This document shows positions 3,836 to 47,124 of a DNA stretch of 64,000 nt, in pieces. Below the pieces are notes generated by a model. That model was given only the letters and a program-made list of their open reading frames with translations. It did no database searches and was not told where the DNA came from. Both the position numbers and the translations under genes were made by a program. Where the stretch lies: positions 1 to 64,000 of IMG/VR virus record IMGVR_UViG_2844225640_000006; one strand, 5' to 3'. Position 1 is the stretch's first letter; every line of letters begins with the position of its first letter. The DNA is from a virus (lineage: Duplodnaviria; Caudoviricetes).

Positions 3836-3924
3836 GATGATTCTCCTGAATGATGTTCGGTGTGCCCGCCCGCTCCGGGTGGAAGGGGAAGCAGGCGGGC
3901 TACGTCATCCCGCGAGGGAGACGA

Positions 3925-4167
3925 TCAATCCCACAGGGTCTTGAACGACTGAGCCTGTTCTTCCTGCGAGATGGTGGGGAGGACGACCCTCAGCCCGGCC
4001 GGGAGCACCGGGCCATAAGCGAAAAGATCTGGGTTGGCTTCCAGCAAAGCCTCGGTGTTCTTGCCGTGCTTGCCGTAATATTTGTAGGCAATGGCGTCGA
4101 CCACGTCGCCGTCGATGGTGATGTAGACCTTCTGGCCGGTGATGCTCGTCACAATGCGGTTCAGCAT
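3925..4167 (-). CDS. Tail protein X (P2 GpX, LysM-like)
   Basis: GD.VDAIAYKYYG..LLEANP.L...GPVLPAGL.V.LP. Confidence 0.88.
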   Translation of the reverse strand: MLNRIVTSITGQKVYITIDGDVVDAIAYKYYGKHGKNTEALLEANPDLFAYGPVLPAGLRVVLPTISQEEQAQSFKTLWD

Positions 4168-4176
4168 TGCCGCCTC

Positions 4177-5322
4177 CTATCCGATATTGGAACCGGGATC
4201 GCCGGTCAGGCTTGGTGCACCAGCTTCGAGACCGGATCTCGGTACTGCGCCAGCAGGGTTTGTTTTCGTAGACGACGAAGCAGACGAGGAGGAAGACTTG
4301 CCGGAGCCGGAGCCTGGGCCAGAACCGCTATTGTCATTCGGCTTCGTGCAGGACAGCGACGTTGTGTATGCGCCGCTGGCCGAGAAGTTGTGAGTGACAG
4401 ATCGGATTGACCAGATTCCGTCCACATTCGAGCGGCACCCGCTGACGACAGCGTTGGCTTCCGCCTGGGCGAAAGGCTCACCGTTAATCTCGAACGTCGC
4501 ATCACCAGTATCGCGGTTGAGCTTCTTCGCTTGCGCCTTGGCAGCACGTTGCGCTTCATCCTTGTCCTGATGAGGGGTGCGTATCGTGAACCGAGGCCCA
4601 TCCAAACCCGTCTTCTCCTCGACCGTTTCCTTCTTGTTTTTCTTCCGGTCGTAGTAGGACGCCTCAACAGTCGAGTGTCGCGGCTCGTCCTTCTCCGTGA
4701 CGGAGTATTTCAAAAGATTGGAACCGCGCGCCACCAGAACGTCAGGGAGTCCCGTCCCGCTTGCGCTGAGACTATCGCCACGAGAAACGACAACAAGACG
4801 GCCGGACTTAACAGTGATCGATGCATTCAGCTTGTCGCCTATGCGGGTCAGGAACTCGAGGGAGTTCTCTTCGGTCTGCGCTTCGTAAACGTTGACCGTA
4901 GCCTTGATGTCATTCGAAATCGTGAGCGTAAGACCTATCCGTCCCGCGACGTCACTGAAAATGTCGCCGTAGGTTGCGAAGTCTTTCTTCGGATACGCCT
5001 TCGGATCTCGCTGCTTGGCAAGGGACTTAGCCGCAACCGACTTCGCCTGAATCGTGATCTGCTGAGGCCAGCCAGAGAAGACGACGGAGTCCACAGAGAA
5101 CTGGCCGAAGTCCCTCATCCGGCCTTCATAACCACCGACTGGATTCAGGATCGCTCCCGTCTTCGGGGCGGCGACAGATCCGTCGACGTCTGAAATCACA
5201 ATAGACAGCGTGTCCGACTTGGAGCCGACGCCGTCCGTAATCGTCATGGTCACGCCAGATCCAGCGATCCGACCTGTGATGTCCACGCCGTTGGCGCTGA
5301 TCGAGAATTTAGGAACCGGCAT
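4177..5322 (-). CDS. Late control protein D / baseplate hub (P2 GpD-like)
   Basis: TITD..G..SDTL, Q..E....FLTR, and position in U-D-X order. Confidence 0.85.
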   Translation of the reverse strand: MPVPKFSISANGVDITGRIAGSGVTMTITDGVGSKSDTLSIVISDVDGSVAAPKTGAILNPVGGYEGRMRDFGQFSVDSVVFSGWPQQITIQAKSVAAKSLAKQRDPKAYPKKDFATYGDIFSDVAGRIGLTLTISNDIKATVNVYEAQTEENSLEFLTRIGDKLNASITVKSGRLVVVSRGDSLSASGTGLPDVLVARGSNLLKYSVTEKDEPRHSTVEASYYDRKKNKKETVEEKTGLDGPRFTIRTPHQDKDEAQRAAKAQAKKLNRDTGDATFEINGEPFAQAEANAVVSGCRSNVDGIWSIRSVTHNFSASGAYTTSLSCTKPNDNSGSGPGSGSGKSSSSSASSSTKTNPAGAVPRSGLEAGAPSLTGDPGSNIG

Positions 5323-34825: not shown

Positions 34826-35611
34826 ATGAATGCCGCCCTGCCGCTCATTGTGAGCCTGAATTGCGGGTGTTTCTTCCGTGGTCGGTTCCTGATCGAGACG
34901 CCCGAATGCGAAGAGCATCGCAAGCTCGACAGCCTCGACGACGAACCGACCGAGTTCAAGTTCGACCAGCTGTCCGACCGAGCGAAAGAACGCGCTCGCG
35001 AGAAATTCCGCGACGGCTATCTCAACTATGATTGGTGGGATTCTGTCTATGACGCCGCCGTTACCATCGCCGAAATGATGGGCATAGAGATAGATGGCAC
35101 CGCGCGGCAACCATCAATACAGTTCTCCGGCTTCTGGTCGCAAGGTGACGGCGCGTCGTTTTCAGGGCGCTGGACCCCATTGGCCGATCCGCTCGCCTCG
35201 CTCAACAAGGTGATGGAATACGCGCCACTGGACAAGGAACTGCATTCACTCGCCTTCGATCTGGCGTTGCTTTCCGAAGGATGCCGCGATCTCATTCCCA
35301 ATGCCTATGTCCGCGTCACCAACTCTGGATATTATTCACACTCCGGCAGCACGCATTTCGACATTGACCTGCCGCTCCCCGACAACATCGACGAGGACAA
35401 CGAACTGCAAGTCATGGTCTATGAAGCCTTGCTCAAGGCTCGCGATCTGGACTTCGACTCATTCGAGGACCGCATCAAGGCAAGCCTGCGCGGCTTCATG
35501 GACTGGATATATGACCAGCTTGAGACCGAGCATGACTGGCTCATGTCCGATGAAAACATTGACGAGGCGCTCGCCGATTACAACTTCGATGAAGAAGGAG
35601 AGTTGCTTTGA
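34826..35611 (+). CDS. Conserved acidic phage protein
   Basis: F.F.QLSD.AKE.AR, I.FSGFWSQGDGASF, WIY.QLE.E.DW motifs. Confidence 0.75.
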   Translation: MNAALPLIVSLNCGCFFRGRFLIETPECEEHRKLDSLDDEPTEFKFDQLSDRAKERAREKFRDGYLNYDWWDSVYDAAVTIAEMMGIEIDGTARQPSIQFSGFWSQGDGASFSGRWTPLADPLASLNKVMEYAPLDKELHSLAFDLALLSEGCRDLIPNAYVRVTNSGYYSHSGSTHFDIDLPLPDNIDEDNELQVMVYEALLKARDLDFDSFEDRIKASLRGFMDWIYDQLETEHDWLMSDENIDEALADYNFDEEGELL

Positions 35612-35820
35612 TAGCCGAGTTCTCAACCTATCTGCGCATCTTTGACGTGACCACGTTTGTCTCCGCCGCACAAGAACGAGCCAGAAACGAAGGCGTCGAC
35701 GAGAATGACGTCAAAGAAATGTACAACGAGTCCAACTTGGACAATTGCCTCATCATGTTGCTCGATCCATCCACGCTTCCCGGTTGCGAAATCCTCGAAA
35801 GTAACGCCGAGATTGCCTGA
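35608..35820 (+). CDS. Hypothetical acidic protein
   Basis: AAGGAG SD, TTG start overlapping upstream stop. Confidence 0.55.
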   Translation: MIAEFSTYLRIFDVTTFVSAAQERARNEGVDENDVKEMYNESNLDNCLIMLLDPSTLPGCEILESNAEIA

Positions 35821-35856
35821 CACCCCGCCAACTATGGCACCACAACGGAGACTCCC

Positions 35857-36762
35857 GTGAATATCATGACCAATCCTCAATCCGTTTCCTCGGTCCTCGC
35901 CAGCCGCGCGATGATTGTTTCCCTGTCCATCTCGCAATGGTCAGGCCGTCGCCTTGACCGGCAGATCACCGACGAGGTCAACCAGAACCACGGCGCTGCC
36001 GCCGACGCTGGCCGCTACAACAAATTGCTCCTCCCGAAGGAAGCATTGGCGGAAATCGTATCCATCGTCGGCGAAACCCGCTCGGACTTCCTCAAACGCA
36101 CCTTGCCTTGGATGGACAACGGTAGCCGCATCATGGCAAGCGATGCATATTTGCAGCATATGTCATGGGTGCGCGGTCAGGTCGCCAAGTTCGACCGGGC
36201 TGTCGACAAATTCCTCGCTGACTACCCGCAATATGTGGCCGATGCCCGTGTCCGCCTGAACGGCATGTTCAAGGACGACGACTACCCCGACGCTCAAATC
36301 TTGCGCAGCAAGTTCGGCGTTGCCTGCAAGGTTCTTCCGGTCCCCACCTCGGAAGACTTCCGCGTGGACATGAGCCAGGCACAAGCTGACCGCATCCGCG
36401 AGGAGATCGAACAGCAAGTCTCCGACGCCACCACGGAAGCGGTGCGTGATGTTTACCGCCGCGTGGCAGACGTCACAGGACGAATGGTCGAAAGGCTCAA
36501 CGCCTACAAGCCAGCCGGTCGTCCGGGTGACAAGACGGAAGGCGTGTTTCGCGACAGCCTTGTCGAGAATGTGCGCGATCTGATTAGCGTCTTGCCCGCG
36601 CTCAACATCATTGGCGACCGCGAGCTTTCCGCCATGGTCGAACGGCTCAAGCCATTGGCCGAGCACAATGCGTCGACCCTGCGCGATAGGCCGGAGATCC
36701 GCCGCGACGTAGCCGATGAGGCTCAGAAAATCCTCGACAGCGTCTCCGGCTTCTTGGCCTGA
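35857..36762 (+). CDS. DUF3150-like protein
   Basis: SISQWSGRRLD, K.LLP, TLPW...G.R, F...DYP, FRDSLVEN, LPALN; usual neighbour of MoxR/vWA genes. Confidence 0.7.
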   Translation: MNIMTNPQSVSSVLASRAMIVSLSISQWSGRRLDRQITDEVNQNHGAAADAGRYNKLLLPKEALAEIVSIVGETRSDFLKRTLPWMDNGSRIMASDAYLQHMSWVRGQVAKFDRAVDKFLADYPQYVADARVRLNGMFKDDDYPDAQILRSKFGVACKVLPVPTSEDFRVDMSQAQADRIREEIEQQVSDATTEAVRDVYRRVADVTGRMVERLNAYKPAGRPGDKTEGVFRDSLVENVRDLISVLPALNIIGDRELSAMVERLKPLAEHNASTLRDRPEIRRDVADEAQKILDSVSGFLA

Positions 36763-36774
36763 GACAAATAGAAT

Positions 36775-36988
36775 TGCAGGAGCGAGGCGCCCGCTCCTGC
36801 ATTTGGCGTGGCATGGCTTGGTAGGGCGCGGCGGGGCAGCGCATGGCAGGCATGGCATGGCGCGGCGTGGTATGGCTCGGCTTGGCGCGGCAGGCTAGGC
36901 GCGGCTAGGCGAGGCGCGGCGAGGCAAGGCGCGGCGAGGCCGGGCAGGCTCCCACCCAAAAGCCGCCGCTCTCTGAAAAGGGAGCGGC
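36775..36988 (+). ncRNA. GGY-NN pentamer array 1 (candidate guide RNA): 8+8+10 pentamers separated by GGCA
   Basis: Array 36805-36949; 10-bp hairpin 36775-36801 before and 9-bp hairpin 36965-36988 after. Confidence 0.8.
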
Positions 36989-37081
36989 ACCTCAAAGTTC
37001 TCCTCTTCACCGGGGAGCCTTTTGAGGTGTCAGAACGGCACTACGAACCCAATGCAATCATGCATCCAAGGAAACATGTTC

Positions 37082-37759
37082 ATGGCAAAAGCAGCAACCA
37101 AAGTCGAAACCGGAATCACTCTTCCGAAGCTCAACATCCAGCTCATGGAAGTGGTGGTCATCGGCGACTCCCCGCTCATCGTCCACGCTTGGTCTGAAAA
37201 GGCCAAGAAGGAAATGCTGGACAAGCAGTTGAAGGTAGCGAAGGGCGCTCGTGAAGCGAAAGACCCTGTCGCAGACTTCCAGAACACTATGTATCGCTTC
37301 GAAGACGGCGGTCACGGCTTCCCGTCCATCGCCTTCAAGGCGGCAGCTGTCACCGCTGGCACATCCGTTGCGGGACTCACCAAGATCGCAGCGAGACAGG
37401 CGTTTCATATGCTCGGCGAGAACGCCGACATTGCCGGTGCTTTTGATGGGGCGCAGTCCCGCACGAACCTCGTGCGAATCCTCGGCTCCGAACCCCAGAT
37501 GCGTGAAGACATGGTCAGGGTCGGAATGGGCACGGCAGACATCCGCTACCGTGCGGAATACCCGGATTGGCACGCAAAACTGCTCGTTCGCTACAATGCA
37601 AACGTGCTGTCCGAAGCACAGATTCTCAACCTCATCAACGTGGCAGGCTTTGCTGTCGGCGTCGGCGAATGGCGCCCCGAAAAGGACGGCAATTACGGCA
37701 TGTACCATGTCGCCACCGAGAAGGAACTGAAGGCGCTTGGTGTGCAATCACCGGGCTGA
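37082..37759 (+). CDS. Stand-alone Cas7/RAMP-like protein (candidate Vipr-type RNA-guided effector)
   Basis: 225 aa; VVIGDSPLIVH first strand, FPSIAFKAA helix motif, C-terminal Gly loop GVGEWRPEKDGNYGMY. Confidence 0.75.
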   Translation: MAKAATKVETGITLPKLNIQLMEVVVIGDSPLIVHAWSEKAKKEMLDKQLKVAKGAREAKDPVADFQNTMYRFEDGGHGFPSIAFKAAAVTAGTSVAGLTKIAARQAFHMLGENADIAGAFDGAQSRTNLVRILGSEPQMREDMVRVGMGTADIRYRAEYPDWHAKLLVRYNANVLSEAQILNLINVAGFAVGVGEWRPEKDGNYGMYHVATEKELKALGVQSPG

Positions 37760-37765
37760 AACAAT

Positions 37766-37916
37766 ACAGGGTCGCGTTGCCATCGTGGCCCTGTTTAGGC
37801 GAGGTATGGCAGGCAAGGCAGGGCTTGGCTGTGCGAGGCAGGGCGCGGCGGGGCAAGGCCGGGCAGGCTCACCCACCAGCGGCCAAGGGGCAGCATTCAA
37901 CCGCCCCATTTCTTTT
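37766..37916 (+). ncRNA. GGY-NN pentamer array 2: 2+10 pentamers
   Basis: Array 37798-37868; 11-bp hairpin 37766-37794 before; GGGGC..GCCCC and T-tract after. Confidence 0.75.
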
Positions 37917-37942
37917 CAACAACCAACAGAGGAGTAGCTGCA

Positions 37943-38488
37943 ATGGTAAAGATTGCATCTTACGGCTTCGCAGAGGGTTCCCGTTTCCAGAAAGGCGCGA
38001 ATACTTCCGCCCCCGAACTGGTCGGTGAACACCTTGAGACTATCCGCAAGGCGAAAGACGGTAAGCTCACACCCGACGACGTGGTGGCCGACGCTCGTAA
38101 TCCCAACTCTCCGCTGCATTCGTTCTTTGAGTGGGACGATTCAGCAGCAGCTCATGAGCACCGGCTTCGGCAGGCTCGCCAGCTGATCCGCACGATCGTT
38201 GTGCGCTATCAGGAAGTCGAGTCCAAGGAACCGATACGGGCCTATGTTAATGTCCGCTCACCCAACAGTGACAATGGGAATGAACCGGACAGCGATGAAC
38301 CACGTCAGTATTACACCGACACGATCGAAGCGCTCTCTGCCCCTGACATGCGAAGGGCCGTGCTTCTCCGGGCAAAGTCCGAGCTTGACGCTTGGCGCAA
38401 GCGATATGCCGACCTCGAAGAATTGTCCATCGTCGTGCGGACCATCACCAAGATGTCCGAAAAAGTCGGCGAACTGGCTGATGCTTGA
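37943..38488 (+). CDS. Conserved phage protein, candidate accessory of the RAMP/array system
   Basis: G.LTP..VV..AR.P.SPLH..FEWDD..AA...RL.QARQLI; GAGGAG SD; lies between arrays 2 and 3. Confidence 0.7.
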   Translation: MVKIASYGFAEGSRFQKGANTSAPELVGEHLETIRKAKDGKLTPDDVVADARNPNSPLHSFFEWDDSAAAHEHRLRQARQLIRTIVVRYQEVESKEPIRAYVNVRSPNSDNGNEPDSDEPRQYYTDTIEALSAPDMRRAVLLRAKSELDAWRKRYADLEELSIVVRTITKMSEKVGELADA

Positions 38489-38504
38489 ACCCAAACAAAT
38501 AATT

Positions 38505-38612
38505 GGCGTGGTGGGGCAGGCAGGGCTTGGCATGGCAGGGCTTGGCTTGGCCCGGTGCGTCTCGTTTCGGCAGGCAAACACGGGGATTCGTTCGCGGCTC
38601 CCCTTTTCTTTT
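38505..38612 (+). ncRNA. GGY-NN pentamer array 3: 2+10 pentamers
   Basis: Array 38505-38575; GGGGA..TCCCC and TTTTCTTTT after. Confidence 0.75.
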
Positions 38613-38641
38613 CAGCAATCATGCAAACTAAGGAGACGAGC

Positions 38642-39055
38642 ATGAGTGTGCGCAATCTTCCATCGCCTGTTCGATTCCTCCTCATCCCGGTACTCGGCGA
38701 CATCAAAGAGGAACGGTTTACGGTTGCGCCCGCCACGGTGGTTCCCCGTGCCAAACTATTGGAGCATGTGCGGACGTTCTTCGACGAACCAATCGAGCGC
38801 GTGAACGTGCTCTATCGGGGCGAGTACCGCGATATGTTCGTCGGCGAGACGTCGGCCATCAACGGTCGCCACATCCGCAATATCCGGGCGACCGAAGTCT
38901 ACCGGGCAAATGCGCTGGAAAATCACTGGCGTCTCAATTCACCCGACCCGACAAAGGCGAAGCCTATCGATTTGTCGTGGACACTCGACCCTGAAATTCT
39001 ACCGGCCATCTCTGGTCCGGCGGTTCTGTTCCCAGATTATCAAGTGTGGGAATAA
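38642..39055 (+). CDS. Hypothetical protein
   Basis: TAAGGAG SD; ERV.VLY.G...DMFV.E, N.RAT..YR.N, I.GPAVLF. Confidence 0.7.
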   Translation: MSVRNLPSPVRFLLIPVLGDIKEERFTVAPATVVPRAKLLEHVRTFFDEPIERVNVLYRGEYRDMFVGETSAINGRHIRNIRATEVYRANALENHWRLNSPDPTKAKPIDLSWTLDPEILPAISGPAVLFPDYQVWE

Positions 39056-39294: not shown

Positions 39295-40296
39295 ATGAAC
39301 CTCAAGTCCGCAACGACTCTGCTCAACCACTTCATTGACGCCGACATTCCGGCATTCATGTGGGGCCCTCCCGGCGTCGGCAAGTCCGCTTCGCTGCATC
39401 AGATTGTGACCGAGCGTAAATGGGGAATGGTGGACTTCCGCGCTTCGACCCGTGACTCGGTGGCGTTGATGGGCCTGCCTGATATTTCCGGCGAGACCAC
39501 CCGCTGGAAAGTGCCGGACGAATTTCCGCAGGCCGAACGTGACGGCGAGGAAGGCATCCTGTTTCTCGACGAACTGAACGCCGCGCCACCTTCGATGATG
39601 GCGGCAATGTTTGGCCTGGTCCTTGACCGCAAGGTCGGCGACTACGTGCTGCCCAAGGGCTGGCGCGTAGTTGCGGCTGGCAATCGTCAGGCTGACCGTG
39701 CTGCGGCACAGCGTATGCCTACCGCTCTCGCTAACCGCTTCGCTCACATCGACGTCGATGCAGATACGAGCGCCGGACATGACAATGTCCACGTCGAATA
39801 CTTCAATCAGATCGGCGTTGATCCGCAGCTCATTGCCTTCCTTCGGTTCCGTCCGGCACTGATCCATTCGATGCCGAAGAATGATGAGCGTGCGTTCCCA
39901 ACGCCCCGTTCGTGGGAACAGGCGGCGAAGATCCTGAATCTTCCGACGGCACTCCGCCTGCAGGGTGTATCCGCTATCGTCGGTGAAGGCGCTGCGGCTG
40001 AACTGGAAGGATTCCTTCGTGTTTACCAGAACTTGCCTTCGCTAGATCTGGTACTCGCCAATCCGAACAGCGCGCCTATCCCGGAAGACCCGGCGGCTCG
40101 CTTTGCAATCTCCGCTGGCCTTGCCCGTAAGGTTGATGAGCGGTCTTTCGACAACGGCATGGCTTACATGCAGCGCTTGCCTCGTGAGTTCGAGATTATG
40201 ATGTGCGTCGATGCGGTGCGTCGTGAACCGAAGCTCAGCCATACGCAGACGTTCACTTCGTGGGCCATGAGAAACCAAGACGTCACTCTAGGCTGA
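39295..40296 (+). CDS. MoxR-like AAA+ ATPase
   Basis: GPPGVGKS, ILFLDELN, VAAGN, ALANRF, FPTPRSWE. Confidence 0.9.
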   Translation: MNLKSATTLLNHFIDADIPAFMWGPPGVGKSASLHQIVTERKWGMVDFRASTRDSVALMGLPDISGETTRWKVPDEFPQAERDGEEGILFLDELNAAPPSMMAAMFGLVLDRKVGDYVLPKGWRVVAAGNRQADRAAAQRMPTALANRFAHIDVDADTSAGHDNVHVEYFNQIGVDPQLIAFLRFRPALIHSMPKNDERAFPTPRSWEQAAKILNLPTALRLQGVSAIVGEGAAAELEGFLRVYQNLPSLDLVLANPNSAPIPEDPAARFAISAGLARKVDERSFDNGMAYMQRLPREFEIMMCVDAVRREPKLSHTQTFTSWAMRNQDVTLG

Positions 40297-45985: not shown

Positions 45986-46077
45986 CCACCCTCCGTCACA
46001 CCTCAACACCCACTGCGATGGCGCTCCTCTCGGGGCGCCATATCGGGGCGTGTTGCCCTTTTTCAACGGAGAACAAT

Positions 46078-47043
46078 ATGAAAAAGTTTAGCATCATCTT
46101 CATCGCATCCCTCGCTCTTTCGACCTCGTCTGCCCTTGCTTCCGATGGCTGCACCGGCAGTGCCACGCTTATGAAGTGGCTTCAGGGTTGCCGCGATCTT
46201 CCGAGCAGCGTGCGGGTTATCGACCACTCCGGTGGCGACCGCACCCCAGGCGCTAAGAGCTCCTCGGGTGGTAACGGTGCAGCCAGTGGCGGAGAGTCCA
46301 GCGCCAATGCTGGCGGCAATTCCGGCGGAACCAGCGGCACTACCAACAACGGCAACTCCGGCGGCTCCAGCAATGCTGGCAACTCTGGCGGCGGCAGCAA
46401 CGGCGGTTCGAACTCCGGCAGCACTGGCGGCGGCAGCAACGGCGGTTCGAACTCCGGCAGCACTGGCGGCTCCACGGGTGGAAACACTGGCGGCTCCGGC
46501 AATTCCGGTGGCGATACTGGTGGTAACTCCGGCGGTGATACCGGTGGGAACAACGGTGGAAACACTGGCGGGGATACCGGCGGTAACACCGGAGGCGGCA
46601 GCGACAACGGCGGCGGCGACACCGGTGGCAATACCGGCGGAGGTGACAACGGCGGTGGCGGTGACACTGGCGGGAACAACGGCGGTGATAATGGCGGTGG
46701 CGACACTGGCGGCGGTGACACTGGCGGGAACAACGGTGGCGACAACGGAGGGGATAATGGTGGCGACACCGGCTCCGGCGGTAACAACGGCGGCCACAAT
46801 GGCGGAGACCACACCGGCAACGGCCCAGGTAATGGCAATGGCAACGGCGGCAACCACGGCAATGGTGGCGGAAACAACAACGGCTCCGGTCCAGGTTCGG
46901 GTAACGGCGGCCACAACAACGGCAATGGCAACGGTAACGGTAACGGCCATGGCAACAGTGGTGGCAATGGTCACGGCAATGGCGGTGGCGGCAATGGAAA
47001 CGGAGGCGGTAATGGCGGTGGCGGAAAGGGTGGCCGCCACTAA
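46078..47043 (+). CDS. Exported Gly/Asn-rich low-complexity protein
   Basis: Signal peptide MKKFSIIFIASLALSTSSALA, two Cys, then a long G/N/S/T/D repeat tract; 39-bp tandem duplication 46385-46462. Confidence 0.7.
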   Translation: MKKFSIIFIASLALSTSSALASDGCTGSATLMKWLQGCRDLPSSVRVIDHSGGDRTPGAKSSSGGNGAASGGESSANAGGNSGGTSGTTNNGNSGGSSNAGNSGGGSNGGSNSGSTGGGSNGGSNSGSTGGSTGGNTGGSGNSGGDTGGNSGGDTGGNNGGNTGGDTGGNTGGGSDNGGGDTGGNTGGGDNGGGGDTGGNNGGDNGGGDTGGGDTGGNNGGDNGGDNGGDTGSGGNNGGHNGGDHTGNGPGNGNGNGGNHGNGGGNNNGSGPGSGNGGHNNGNGNGNGNGHGNSGGNGHGNGGGGNGNGGGNGGGGKGGRH

Positions 47044-47124
47044 CCCATAATCCACACACAACAAGCGGGGCACTTCGGTGCCCCGTCCATCATCCCGCCA
47101 AACATGGCAACCACGGAGATTGAA

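Follow-up and report, generated by a model that had tools for sequence, protein, structure and literature searches.

The window analysed here is the whole 64,000-nucleotide (nt) stretch forming positions 1 to 64,000 of the IMG/VR virus record IMGVR_UViG_2844225640_000006, and IMG/VR lists the full record, 72,494 bases long, under proviruses. A DUF3150-like gene at 35857–36762 is followed by an insert that holds two open reading frames (ORFs) and arrays of GGCNN pentamers and nothing more. The product of the DUF3150-like gene matches Pfam DUF3150 weakly (E 0.0013, below the curated cut-off), and homologues of 97% to 28% identity are found in proviruses; in the three nearest relatives, the protein is 97%, 72%, and 72% identical to that of the window. 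These relatives (loci L009–L011; whole records G001–G003) have no arrays, either near the gene or elsewhere in the record. In L009, the 97% relative, the DUF3150-like gene directly abuts the next backbone gene, here called gene C, which begins at 38642 in the window; the insert therefore spans approximately 36763–38641 (~1.9 kb). We identify the region 36763–38641 as a VIPR (Viral Interference Programmable Repeat) cassette inserted between the DUF3150-like gene and the next backbone gene. VIPR has been described as a small RAMP protein, Vipr, that works with guide RNAs (vrRNAs) of 9–16 YNNGG repeats, the NN dinucleotides of which pair with double-stranded DNA while one base is skipped, usually at the codon wobble position. 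The natural targets were placed in competing phages and called at a threshold of 80% NN match, and no self matches at that level were found in the authors' sets (bioRxiv 10.64898/2026.04.26.720920). One Vipr protomer is reported per repeat (bioRxiv 10.64898/2026.04.26.720927).

The identity of the protein encoded between arrays 1 and 2 was established by profile and structure comparison. A profile of 26 array-adjacent homologues of the 37076–37759 product matched the Protein Data Bank (PDB) entry 36pp_D, "SUSP1 Vipr protein," with an E value of 3.7e-11, and the single sequence matched the same entry at E 0.0014, with its GVGEWRP loop aligned to GVGDWRP. Across the 26 sequences, G191, G195, R200, and G208 are invariant, and G197 and P201 are conserved in at least 90%. 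An AlphaFold model of the protein (predicted local distance difference test [pLDDT] 88.6) was placed by Foldseek with Csm3/Cas7 chains of type III and VII complexes (E 9e-6, template modelling score ~0.4–0.5). The association with the arrays is recurrent: a scan of the viral collection with a seven-pentamer repeat pattern and no other criterion returned at least 119 loci, and among the matches listed, a Vipr homologue directly adjoins the arrays in 53 of 119, with E <1e-5 in 43 cases. Staggering at GGCA/GGC junctions is likewise seen in the arrays at the loci of the closest Vipr homologues.

Three intergenic arrays are built of GGCNN pentamers, each of them on the + strand (36805–36949, 37798–37868, and 38505–38573), and a four-pentamer pattern was matched 34 times against 0.93 expected (Table 1). 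Array 1 is divided at GGCA/GGC junctions into units with 8, 8, and 10 variable pentamers. Each unit closes with a constant GGCAG, the last G of which is also the first base of the next unit, giving a 1-nt overlap; unit borders were deduced from these junctions and not from RNA ends. Counted with the constant pentamer, U1 and U2 thus have 9 repeats (8 variable and 1 constant), and U3–U5 have 10 + 1. The tails of U3 and U4 both have GGCCGGGCAGGCTC(A)CCCACC and then hairpins, the U3 tail folding at -46.9 kcal/mol (z -4.0). Units U1 and U2 lack a tail of their own, consistent with the "staggered" architecture of 10.64898/2026.04.26.720920, where the legend of fig. S18 describes vrRNAs with a 1-nt overlap.

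Table 1. Features of the VIPR cassette and its surroundings, in window coordinates
Feature	Position	Strand	Description
DUF3150-like gene	35857..36762	+	ORF; carrier's copy of the family that U1 targets in relatives
Self near-target of U1	36589..36611	+	GTC TTG CCC GCG CTC AAC ATC AT; 13/16; codons 245-252 (V-L-P-A-L-N-I-I)
Strong hairpin	36775..36801	+	Just after the stop codon of the DUF3150-like gene; -19.2 kcal/mol, z -3.8; left edge of VIPR insert
vrRNA unit U1	36805..36849	+	8 variable GGCNN + constant GGCAG; last G common to U2
vrRNA unit U2	36849..36893	+	8 GGCNN + GGCAG
vrRNA unit U3 and tail	36893..37030	+	10 GGCNN + GGCAG (36893-36947), then 3' tail GCTCCCACCC... with two strong hairpins
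vipr gene	37076..37759	+	227-aa RAMP protein with glycine-rich loop GVGEWRP; phrog_4652; between arrays 1 and 2
Array 2	37798..37915	+	Short leader, U4 (37812-37866, 10 GGCNN + GGCAG), tail GCTCACCCACC... with hairpin and T-run
Accessory (vap-like) gene	37943..38488	+	181 aa; phrog_15946; conserved motif SPLH..FEWDD..AA..R..QAR.LI
Array 3	38505..38620	+	Short leader, U5 (38519-38573; last three pentamers degenerate), hairpin and T-run
Backbone gene C	38642..39055	+	Right edge of insert; tblastn of residues 28-166 to L009
AAA_5 ATPase	39295..40296	+	Next backbone gene, co-directional; Pfam AAA_5 E 8.4e-7; 98% identical in L009

The variable part of U1 (36805–36844, + strand) consists of the eight pentamers GGCGT GGCAT GGCTT GGTAG GGCGC GGCGG GGCAG CGCAT. 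When their dinucleotides are reverse-complemented and their order is reversed, they give AT CT CC GC CT AA AT AC. An earlier note on this DNA, made from the letters alone, had proposed that this pattern, with one base skipped per dinucleotide, decodes to a 13/16 match in the adjacent DUF3150-like gene, that the skip falls on the wobble position, and that the mismatches are all of the G-U/G-T wobble type; each of these points was confirmed. The match lies at 36589–36611 (the letters at 36589–36612 are GTCTTGCCCGCGCTCAACATCATT) and is the sole one at 13/16 in the window for the one-base-skip pattern, followed by 2 sites at 12/16 and 20 at 11/16; a further 13/16 site is found at position 70757 of the full record, beyond the window. 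Because the self site starts 732 bases into ORF 35857–36762, all skipped bases are codon third positions. In target letters, the three mismatches are A>G, C>T, and C>T, and each would leave an rU:dG or rG:dT wobble pair. The note had also remarked that U4 contains TT.CC.GC.CT, which is literally true but trivial; in that register, U4 matches 9/20 on the self site and 7–8/20 on the relatives.

Taken alone, this self match is at chance level and is no evidence on its own, as permuted guides equal or better it somewhere in the window in 31% of cases. Specifically, a match of at least 13/16 was reached somewhere in the window by 306 of 1,000 guides with permuted U1 dinucleotides and by 462 of 1,000 guides drawn from the dinucleotide pool of the locus. 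The mean count of such matches per random guide was 0.36 and 0.69, respectively, values that bracket the approximately 0.5 chance matches that the note had estimated by hand.

The evidence that U1 is aimed at this gene comes instead from the relatives. In the whole records of the three nearest relatives, the U1 pattern scores 16/16 in L011/G003, 15/16 in L010/G002, and 15/16 in L009/G001, always at codons homologous to 245–252, where the relatives encode I-L-P-A-L-N-I-T in phase. These high scores appear only when one base is skipped, skips of 0, 2, or 3 bases giving 11–13, and 0 of 1,000 permuted guides reach 16/16 on the same three records (5 of 1,000 reach 15). The 16 matched positions span exactly the eight variable dinucleotides of U1, while the constant ninth (AG) adds 0/2 in every relative tested, which supports the unit borders drawn above. 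We also scored homologues that were found by protein search and hence sampled without use of the U1 pattern (16 viral loci and 10 genome loci). All five with at least 70% identity score 15–16/16 at the homologous codons, including L402 (record titled Brucella tritici) at 16/16 and L401 (record titled Brucella pecoris), which is identical to L009, at 15/16. The check that the earlier note had put forward, a 16/16 occurrence of the gapped pattern in DUF3150 homologues, was therefore positive, and its proposal that the guide is aimed at the homologous gene of related phages is supported. So is its suggestion that the guide tolerates synonymous change, since wobble bases differ among the 16/16 and 15/16 targets.

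Pattern-based scans gave a broader view of the same site together with its background. An exact U1 scan of the whole viral collection returned 18 matches, 6 of which fall at the homologous site in homologues 28–72% identical, with differing wobble bases (e.g., ATA/ATC, CCC/CCG, GCC/GCG/GCT, and CTC/CTG), and 12 of which fall outside DUF3150-like homologues. The corresponding scan of a much larger genome collection returned at least 120 loci, with no homologue among the matches listed, and represents the chance background. Among family genomes, 62 of 401 have a U1 match with at most one mismatch, mostly recurrent near-matches outside DUF3150-like homologues; 2 of the 30 family-genome loci that were fetched are DUF3150-like homologues (L413 and L424), both at 16/16. 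At the genus level, 2 of 44 genomes have a DUF3150-like gene, and both carry the U1 site at 15–16/16. Altogether, the homologous in-phase site scores 16/16 in L011/G003, L402, L424, L295, L290, L288, and L289/L291 and 15/16 in L009 (= L401) and L010.

Two of these targets depart from the full pattern through changes of their own. In the cassette-free L009 (4733–4755) and in L401 (5733–5755), one Leu codon read by the guide is synonymously altered (CTC>TTG), which brings the site down to 15/16, and L010 has a Leu>Met change (ATG) at codon 246, another guide-read position; these may represent partial escape in rivals or may be drift. Separately, two recurrent 15/16 near-matches, each constant in sequence except at wobble positions, are present in many family genomes (e.g., L429, L433, L435, and L436) outside DUF3150-like homologues. 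They encode M-L-L-A-L-N-I-T and M-L-P-A-P-K-I-T and are potential off-target sites.

These data bear on the simplest alternative, namely that the self match and the relatives' matches are both coincidental and that the arrays are not guides at all, serving for example as a TRAP-like triplet platform for a ring protein. In Bacillus, RNA bound by TRAP carries about 9–11 GAG/UAG triplets spaced by 2 nt and is wrapped by the oligomeric TRAP ring, a layout that GGC triplets spaced by two bases resemble. The chance level of the self match would also suit this explanation, as would the 12 of 18 exact viral matches outside homologues and the genome matches, of which there are at least 120 and all 120 listed lie outside. 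Coincidence would nevertheless have to account for perfect scores in relatives that no permuted guide attained, for six exact viral matches at one homologous codon window, for the success of skip 1 alone, and for a neighbouring protein that is a Vipr/RAMP homologue. In addition, the triplet here is GGC rather than GAG/UAG, the partner is a RAMP protein rather than a TRAP ring, and the variable dinucleotides find a target. We therefore regard pure coincidence as strongly disfavoured and extremely improbable. A TRAP-like or sponge RNA platform, a G-quadruplex, and a DNA iteron were each dropped on the strength of the Vipr/RAMP neighbour and the perfect targets of U1.

We then asked how the carrier's own copy came to differ from the sequence that U1 reads. 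Compared with three 97%-identical relatives, the carrier has 12 specific changes at first or second codon positions where those three agree, and 3 of the 12 (A733G, C736T, and C755T) fall among the 16 guide-read sites of the 602 considered (Fisher one-sided p = 0.003). All three are transitions: A733G changes I>V, C755T changes T>I, and C736T converts one Leu codon to another (CTG>TTG). Because the Leu change is synonymous, it alters only what the guide reads. The 70–72% homologues share the relatives' states at the three changed codons, except for the ATG of L010 at codon 246, and this agreement with the 97% relatives indicates that the carrier's three states are derived. The supposition of the earlier note that the self copy has diverged thus held: on comparison with the 97% and the 70–72% homologues, the three mismatches arose in the lineage of the window.

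Collectively, the reading in which a rival is targeted and the self copy has diverged is supported at the level of sequence. We consider it probable that the cassette works as a VIPR system in which U1 most likely silences the DUF3150-like gene of related proviruses, the carrier's copy being mismatched by derived changes. By analogy with published VIPR, the arrays would be transcribed and one Vipr protomer would occupy each pentamer, hiding GGC and presenting the NN dinucleotides. The resulting Vipr-vrRNA filament would pair with two of every three bases of double-stranded DNA, leaving the third unread, and would block transcription. With its 8 NN dinucleotides and 16 read bases, U1 would specify ATnCTnCCnGCnCTnAAnATnAC, the coding sequence of the conserved I-L-P-A-L-N-I-T with any wobble bases. 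Its predicted role is to silence the DUF3150-like gene, together with the co-directional cluster that follows, in a related phage that competes with the carrier as a prophage or by superinfection; transcription would stall there on its way through the DUF3150-like gene and into gene C, the AAA_5 ATPase, the DUF2201 gene, and the beta-clamp gene. In the carrier, 200 bp upstream of the guide, I>V, CTG>TTG, and T>I cut the match to 13/16 and would weaken self binding. We infer both the silencing and the self-immunity, including the protection of the carrier's own copy from U1 by its three transitions, from these comparisons.

A number of observations weigh against this interpretation. The target is confined at high score to closer homologues in the protein-search sample: the homologue at 60% identity scores 10/16, and those at 30–40% score 9–14/16, one of them lacking coverage of the site. 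Conversely, the 16/16 loci L280, L288–L291, L295, and L424 form a biased sample because the pattern itself was used to find them, so that the unbiased support consists of the five close homologues. U1, like U2, has 8 variable repeats, or 9 with the constant GGCAG, compared with the 9–16 described for VIPR, and guides U2–U5 yielded no convincing target in the related records, the viral collection, or the genus genomes scanned. Further points concern the carrier's own site, and they lend themselves to two other explanations.

The first of these is a neutral history, in which U1 fits the family motif but the carrier's substitutions came about through drift or in a recombination patch, with no selection for immunity, and U1 itself may have arrived with the cassette as a relic. 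There is a second cluster of 4 carrier-specific changes at nt 511–520 of the gene, outside any guide site, which indicates that such clustering needs no guide; differences at wobble positions are also locally raised near the target, so that the three changes could have come in together on a small recombination patch. The cassette is also mobile, with Vipr relatives in many unrelated contexts. Across the Vipr relatives sampled (5 genome loci and 64 viral loci), none has a DUF3150-like neighbour, and the self-escape pattern consequently has no independent replicate. Set against these observations are the enrichment at 16 sites that were specified in advance by the guide, the synonymous change that alters a guide-read base only, and the consideration that an unprotected 16/16 self site would sit in the carrier's own gene cluster. 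On balance, we find a purely neutral history quite unlikely.

The second explanation is autoregulation, which the earlier note had named as its alternative. Here the 13/16 self site would serve as an operator of reduced strength, at which a Vipr-U1 filament lowers read-through to the cassette and to the cluster downstream; this would be compatible with rival targeting. The self site retains 13/16 = 81%, at or above the 80% cut-off used for targets in 10.64898/2026.04.26.720920, and its mismatches are of the least disruptive kind (G:U/G:T) and sit near the ends, so that an unbroken run of 11 guide-read positions still matches. Given this degree of match, self-immunity is not assured. Furthermore, the site lies upstream of the cassette on the same strand, and since no sigma-70-like promoter was found in 36500–38800, read-through from upstream is plausible. 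What speaks against an operator is that the three derived changes led from a perfect match to a poorer one, which is the direction of escape and not of operator building, and that a strong hairpin stands between the DUF3150-like gene and array 1. The preprints, moreover, report no self matches of at least 80% in their sets (10.64898/2026.04.26.720920) and self scores below non-self scores (10.64898/2026.10.15.759431). Autoregulation thus appears to us unlikely, and targeting of rivals by U1 with a diverged self copy is the reading that we retain.

The remaining guides did not give comparable results. In the three related whole records, U2–U5 score only 12–16 of 16–20. Exact 16-base scans of viral contigs returned 43, 12, 16, and 34 matches for U2, U3, U4, and U5, respectively, with no common gene family related to the carrier phage; the small clusters among them include identical or near-identical contigs. 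For U3, one match extends to 20/20 in a frame with a stop codon and another to 19/20 in an unrelated 117-amino-acid ORF, with ~0.6 such extensions expected among 12 matches. In the genus scans, U3 and U4 each matched 2 of 44 genomes, while the reversed-pattern controls gave 1 and 25 matches, and U2 and U5 showed recurrent near-matches in conserved chromosomal genes.

Two of these chromosomal near-matches can be described further. The ten dinucleotides of U5 (38519–38573) match the host primary sigma factor gene at 18/20 in codon phase (L454:1501–1529), within region 1.1 at codons D-D-A-V-K-K-M-I-K-L; the Pfam domains Sigma70_r1_1, r1_2, ner, and r2 were found in the product. This match is present in ~25 of 44 genomes of the relatives' genus, including both with a related provirus, and reversed U5 gave 0 matches. 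It may be a chance match to a conserved gene, as the reversed U4 control gave ~25 matches in the same genomes. For U2 (36849–36888), a 15/16 in-phase match lies at codons A-N-D-T-T-A-M of a 517-codon ORF (L460) that is conserved on the chromosomes of this genus, in ~18 of 44 genomes; ~0.1 per genome would be expected by chance, multiplied by homology.

Comparison with known systems places the locus within VIPR. It shares with VIPR a RAMP protein homologous to SUSP1 Vipr, arrays of GGY/NN pentamers flanking vipr, an adjacent putative accessory gene, a provirus location, staggered arrays with a 1-nt overlap, and, for U1 only, a one-base-skip match with the skip at the wobble position to a protein-coding target in related phages. 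It differs in its alphaproteobacterial host lineage (relatives' records are titled Brucella pecoris, Brucella tritici, and Rhizobium), in a Vipr only distantly related to that of SUSP1, as the single-sequence E value above indicates, and in a U1 target that is an allele of the gene immediately beside the cassette. For SUSP1-family solo and VIPR+ vrRNAs, self-match scores below non-self scores were read as autoimmunity avoidance (bioRxiv 10.64898/2026.10.15.759431). Our locus is similar in that the guide fits the relatives better than the carrier's own copy; however, the guides in that account target Enterobacteriaceae phages at their vipr genes or vrRNA loci, whereas U1 targets a protein-coding gene of the backbone, and its three self changes are polarised as derived. 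The system kind, the decoding rule, rival targeting, and reduced self-match are already in the 2026 preprints. Particular to this locus are the alphaproteobacterial hosts, staggered arrays with 8-NN guides, a target allele beside the cassette, and three polarised self transitions.

The cassette also recalls the backbone of Class 1 clustered regularly interspaced short palindromic repeat (CRISPR) systems, in which Cas7/Csm3 filaments form on crRNA: both have a RAMP fold, unpaired positions at regular intervals, and, for VIPR as reported in 10.64898/2026.04.26.720927, a single protomer on each repeat unit of the RNA. In contrast to those systems, the insert has no CRISPR repeats, spacer array, other cas genes, or acquisition machinery, and its periodicity is 5 nt on RNA versus 3 nt on DNA, not 6 and 6. 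A Class 1 CRISPR-Cas identity was ruled out on the content of the insert, with its two ORFs and pentamer arrays only, and on the lack of an Rfam CRISPR repeat match. No Rfam family, CRISPR repeats included, matched the stretch at record positions 35393–38415 or five related loci; the only matches were tRNAs, in other loci.

Further details of the arrays were noted. Arrays 2 and 3 open with leaders of two pentamers and GGCA (37798–37811, GGCGA GGTAT GGCA; 38505–38518, GGCGT GGTGG GGCA), while array 1 has none; the leaders could represent a truncated unit or serve as a signal for processing. The hairpin at the left edge of the insert is terminator-like on the - strand only. Many of the pattern loci in the viral collection, among the matches listed, have units of 8–13 pentamers parted by constant delimiters. 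Viral contig L026:644–1197 (- strand) has units of 11–13 variable GGCNN pentamers with a ~60-nt conserved structured spacer between them; in L034:1986–2351, the unit delimiter is GGCGTTCAG and a sigma-70-like -35/-10 lies just upstream of the first unit; and in L064:5698–6028, the delimiter is GGCACCGCA. Elsewhere in the window, 12–54-nt tandem repeats at 46018–47050, rich in GGC/AAC codons (Tandem Repeats Finder scores ≤172) and within or overlapping ORFs at 46018–47043, resemble a glycine/asparagine-rich repeat protein and are not related to the pentamer arrays.

The second ORF of the insert (37943–38488) is named vap-like by its position only. A homologue lies 3' of vipr in 64 of 69 Vipr-homologue loci and, among the matches listed, in 25 of 119 pattern loci. 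Its model (pLDDT 86.4) gave no significant fold match in the PDB (best E 0.43). A similar pair occurs at L472 (record titled Rhizobium leucaenae USDA 9039), positions 3848–5260, where vipr is 78% and the vap-like gene 50% identical; the downstream array there is short and degenerate, and the gene context is different, with no DUF3150-like neighbour. Beyond gene C and the AAA_5 ATPase, the co-directional cluster continues with a DUF2201 gene and a DNA polymerase III beta-clamp gene. A blastn search with 35800–38700 found no match in phage or plasmid collections, and no public sequencing run contains at least half of the sampled words of window positions 36500–38700.

The decoding rule and the target were recovered correctly by a tool-free reading of the raw sequence. 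The guide reads a conserved peptide-coding motif over homologues of 28–97% identity despite their synonymous differences, and the locus offers a natural, polarised example of a VIPR carrier aiming at a gene that it also needs. Since its 16/16 and 13/16 sites form a pair that differs by wobble-type mismatches only, the self/non-self threshold of gapped RNA-guided recognition would be measurable on it. The locus further adds proviruses of Rhizobiales-type hosts to the range of the "staggered array" form of VIPR. We suggest, tentatively and as a possibility on the lower side, that the cassette and the adjacent resistant allele make up a linked weapon-and-immunity pair that could spread like a toxin-antidote or drive element, and that the 13/16 self site may in addition act as a brake on cassette expression. 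Because guide and allele are linked within 200 bp, a recombinant that gained the guide would also gain the escape allele. If this is true, the guide would silence the ancestral I-L-P-A-L-N-I-T allele of all close relatives.

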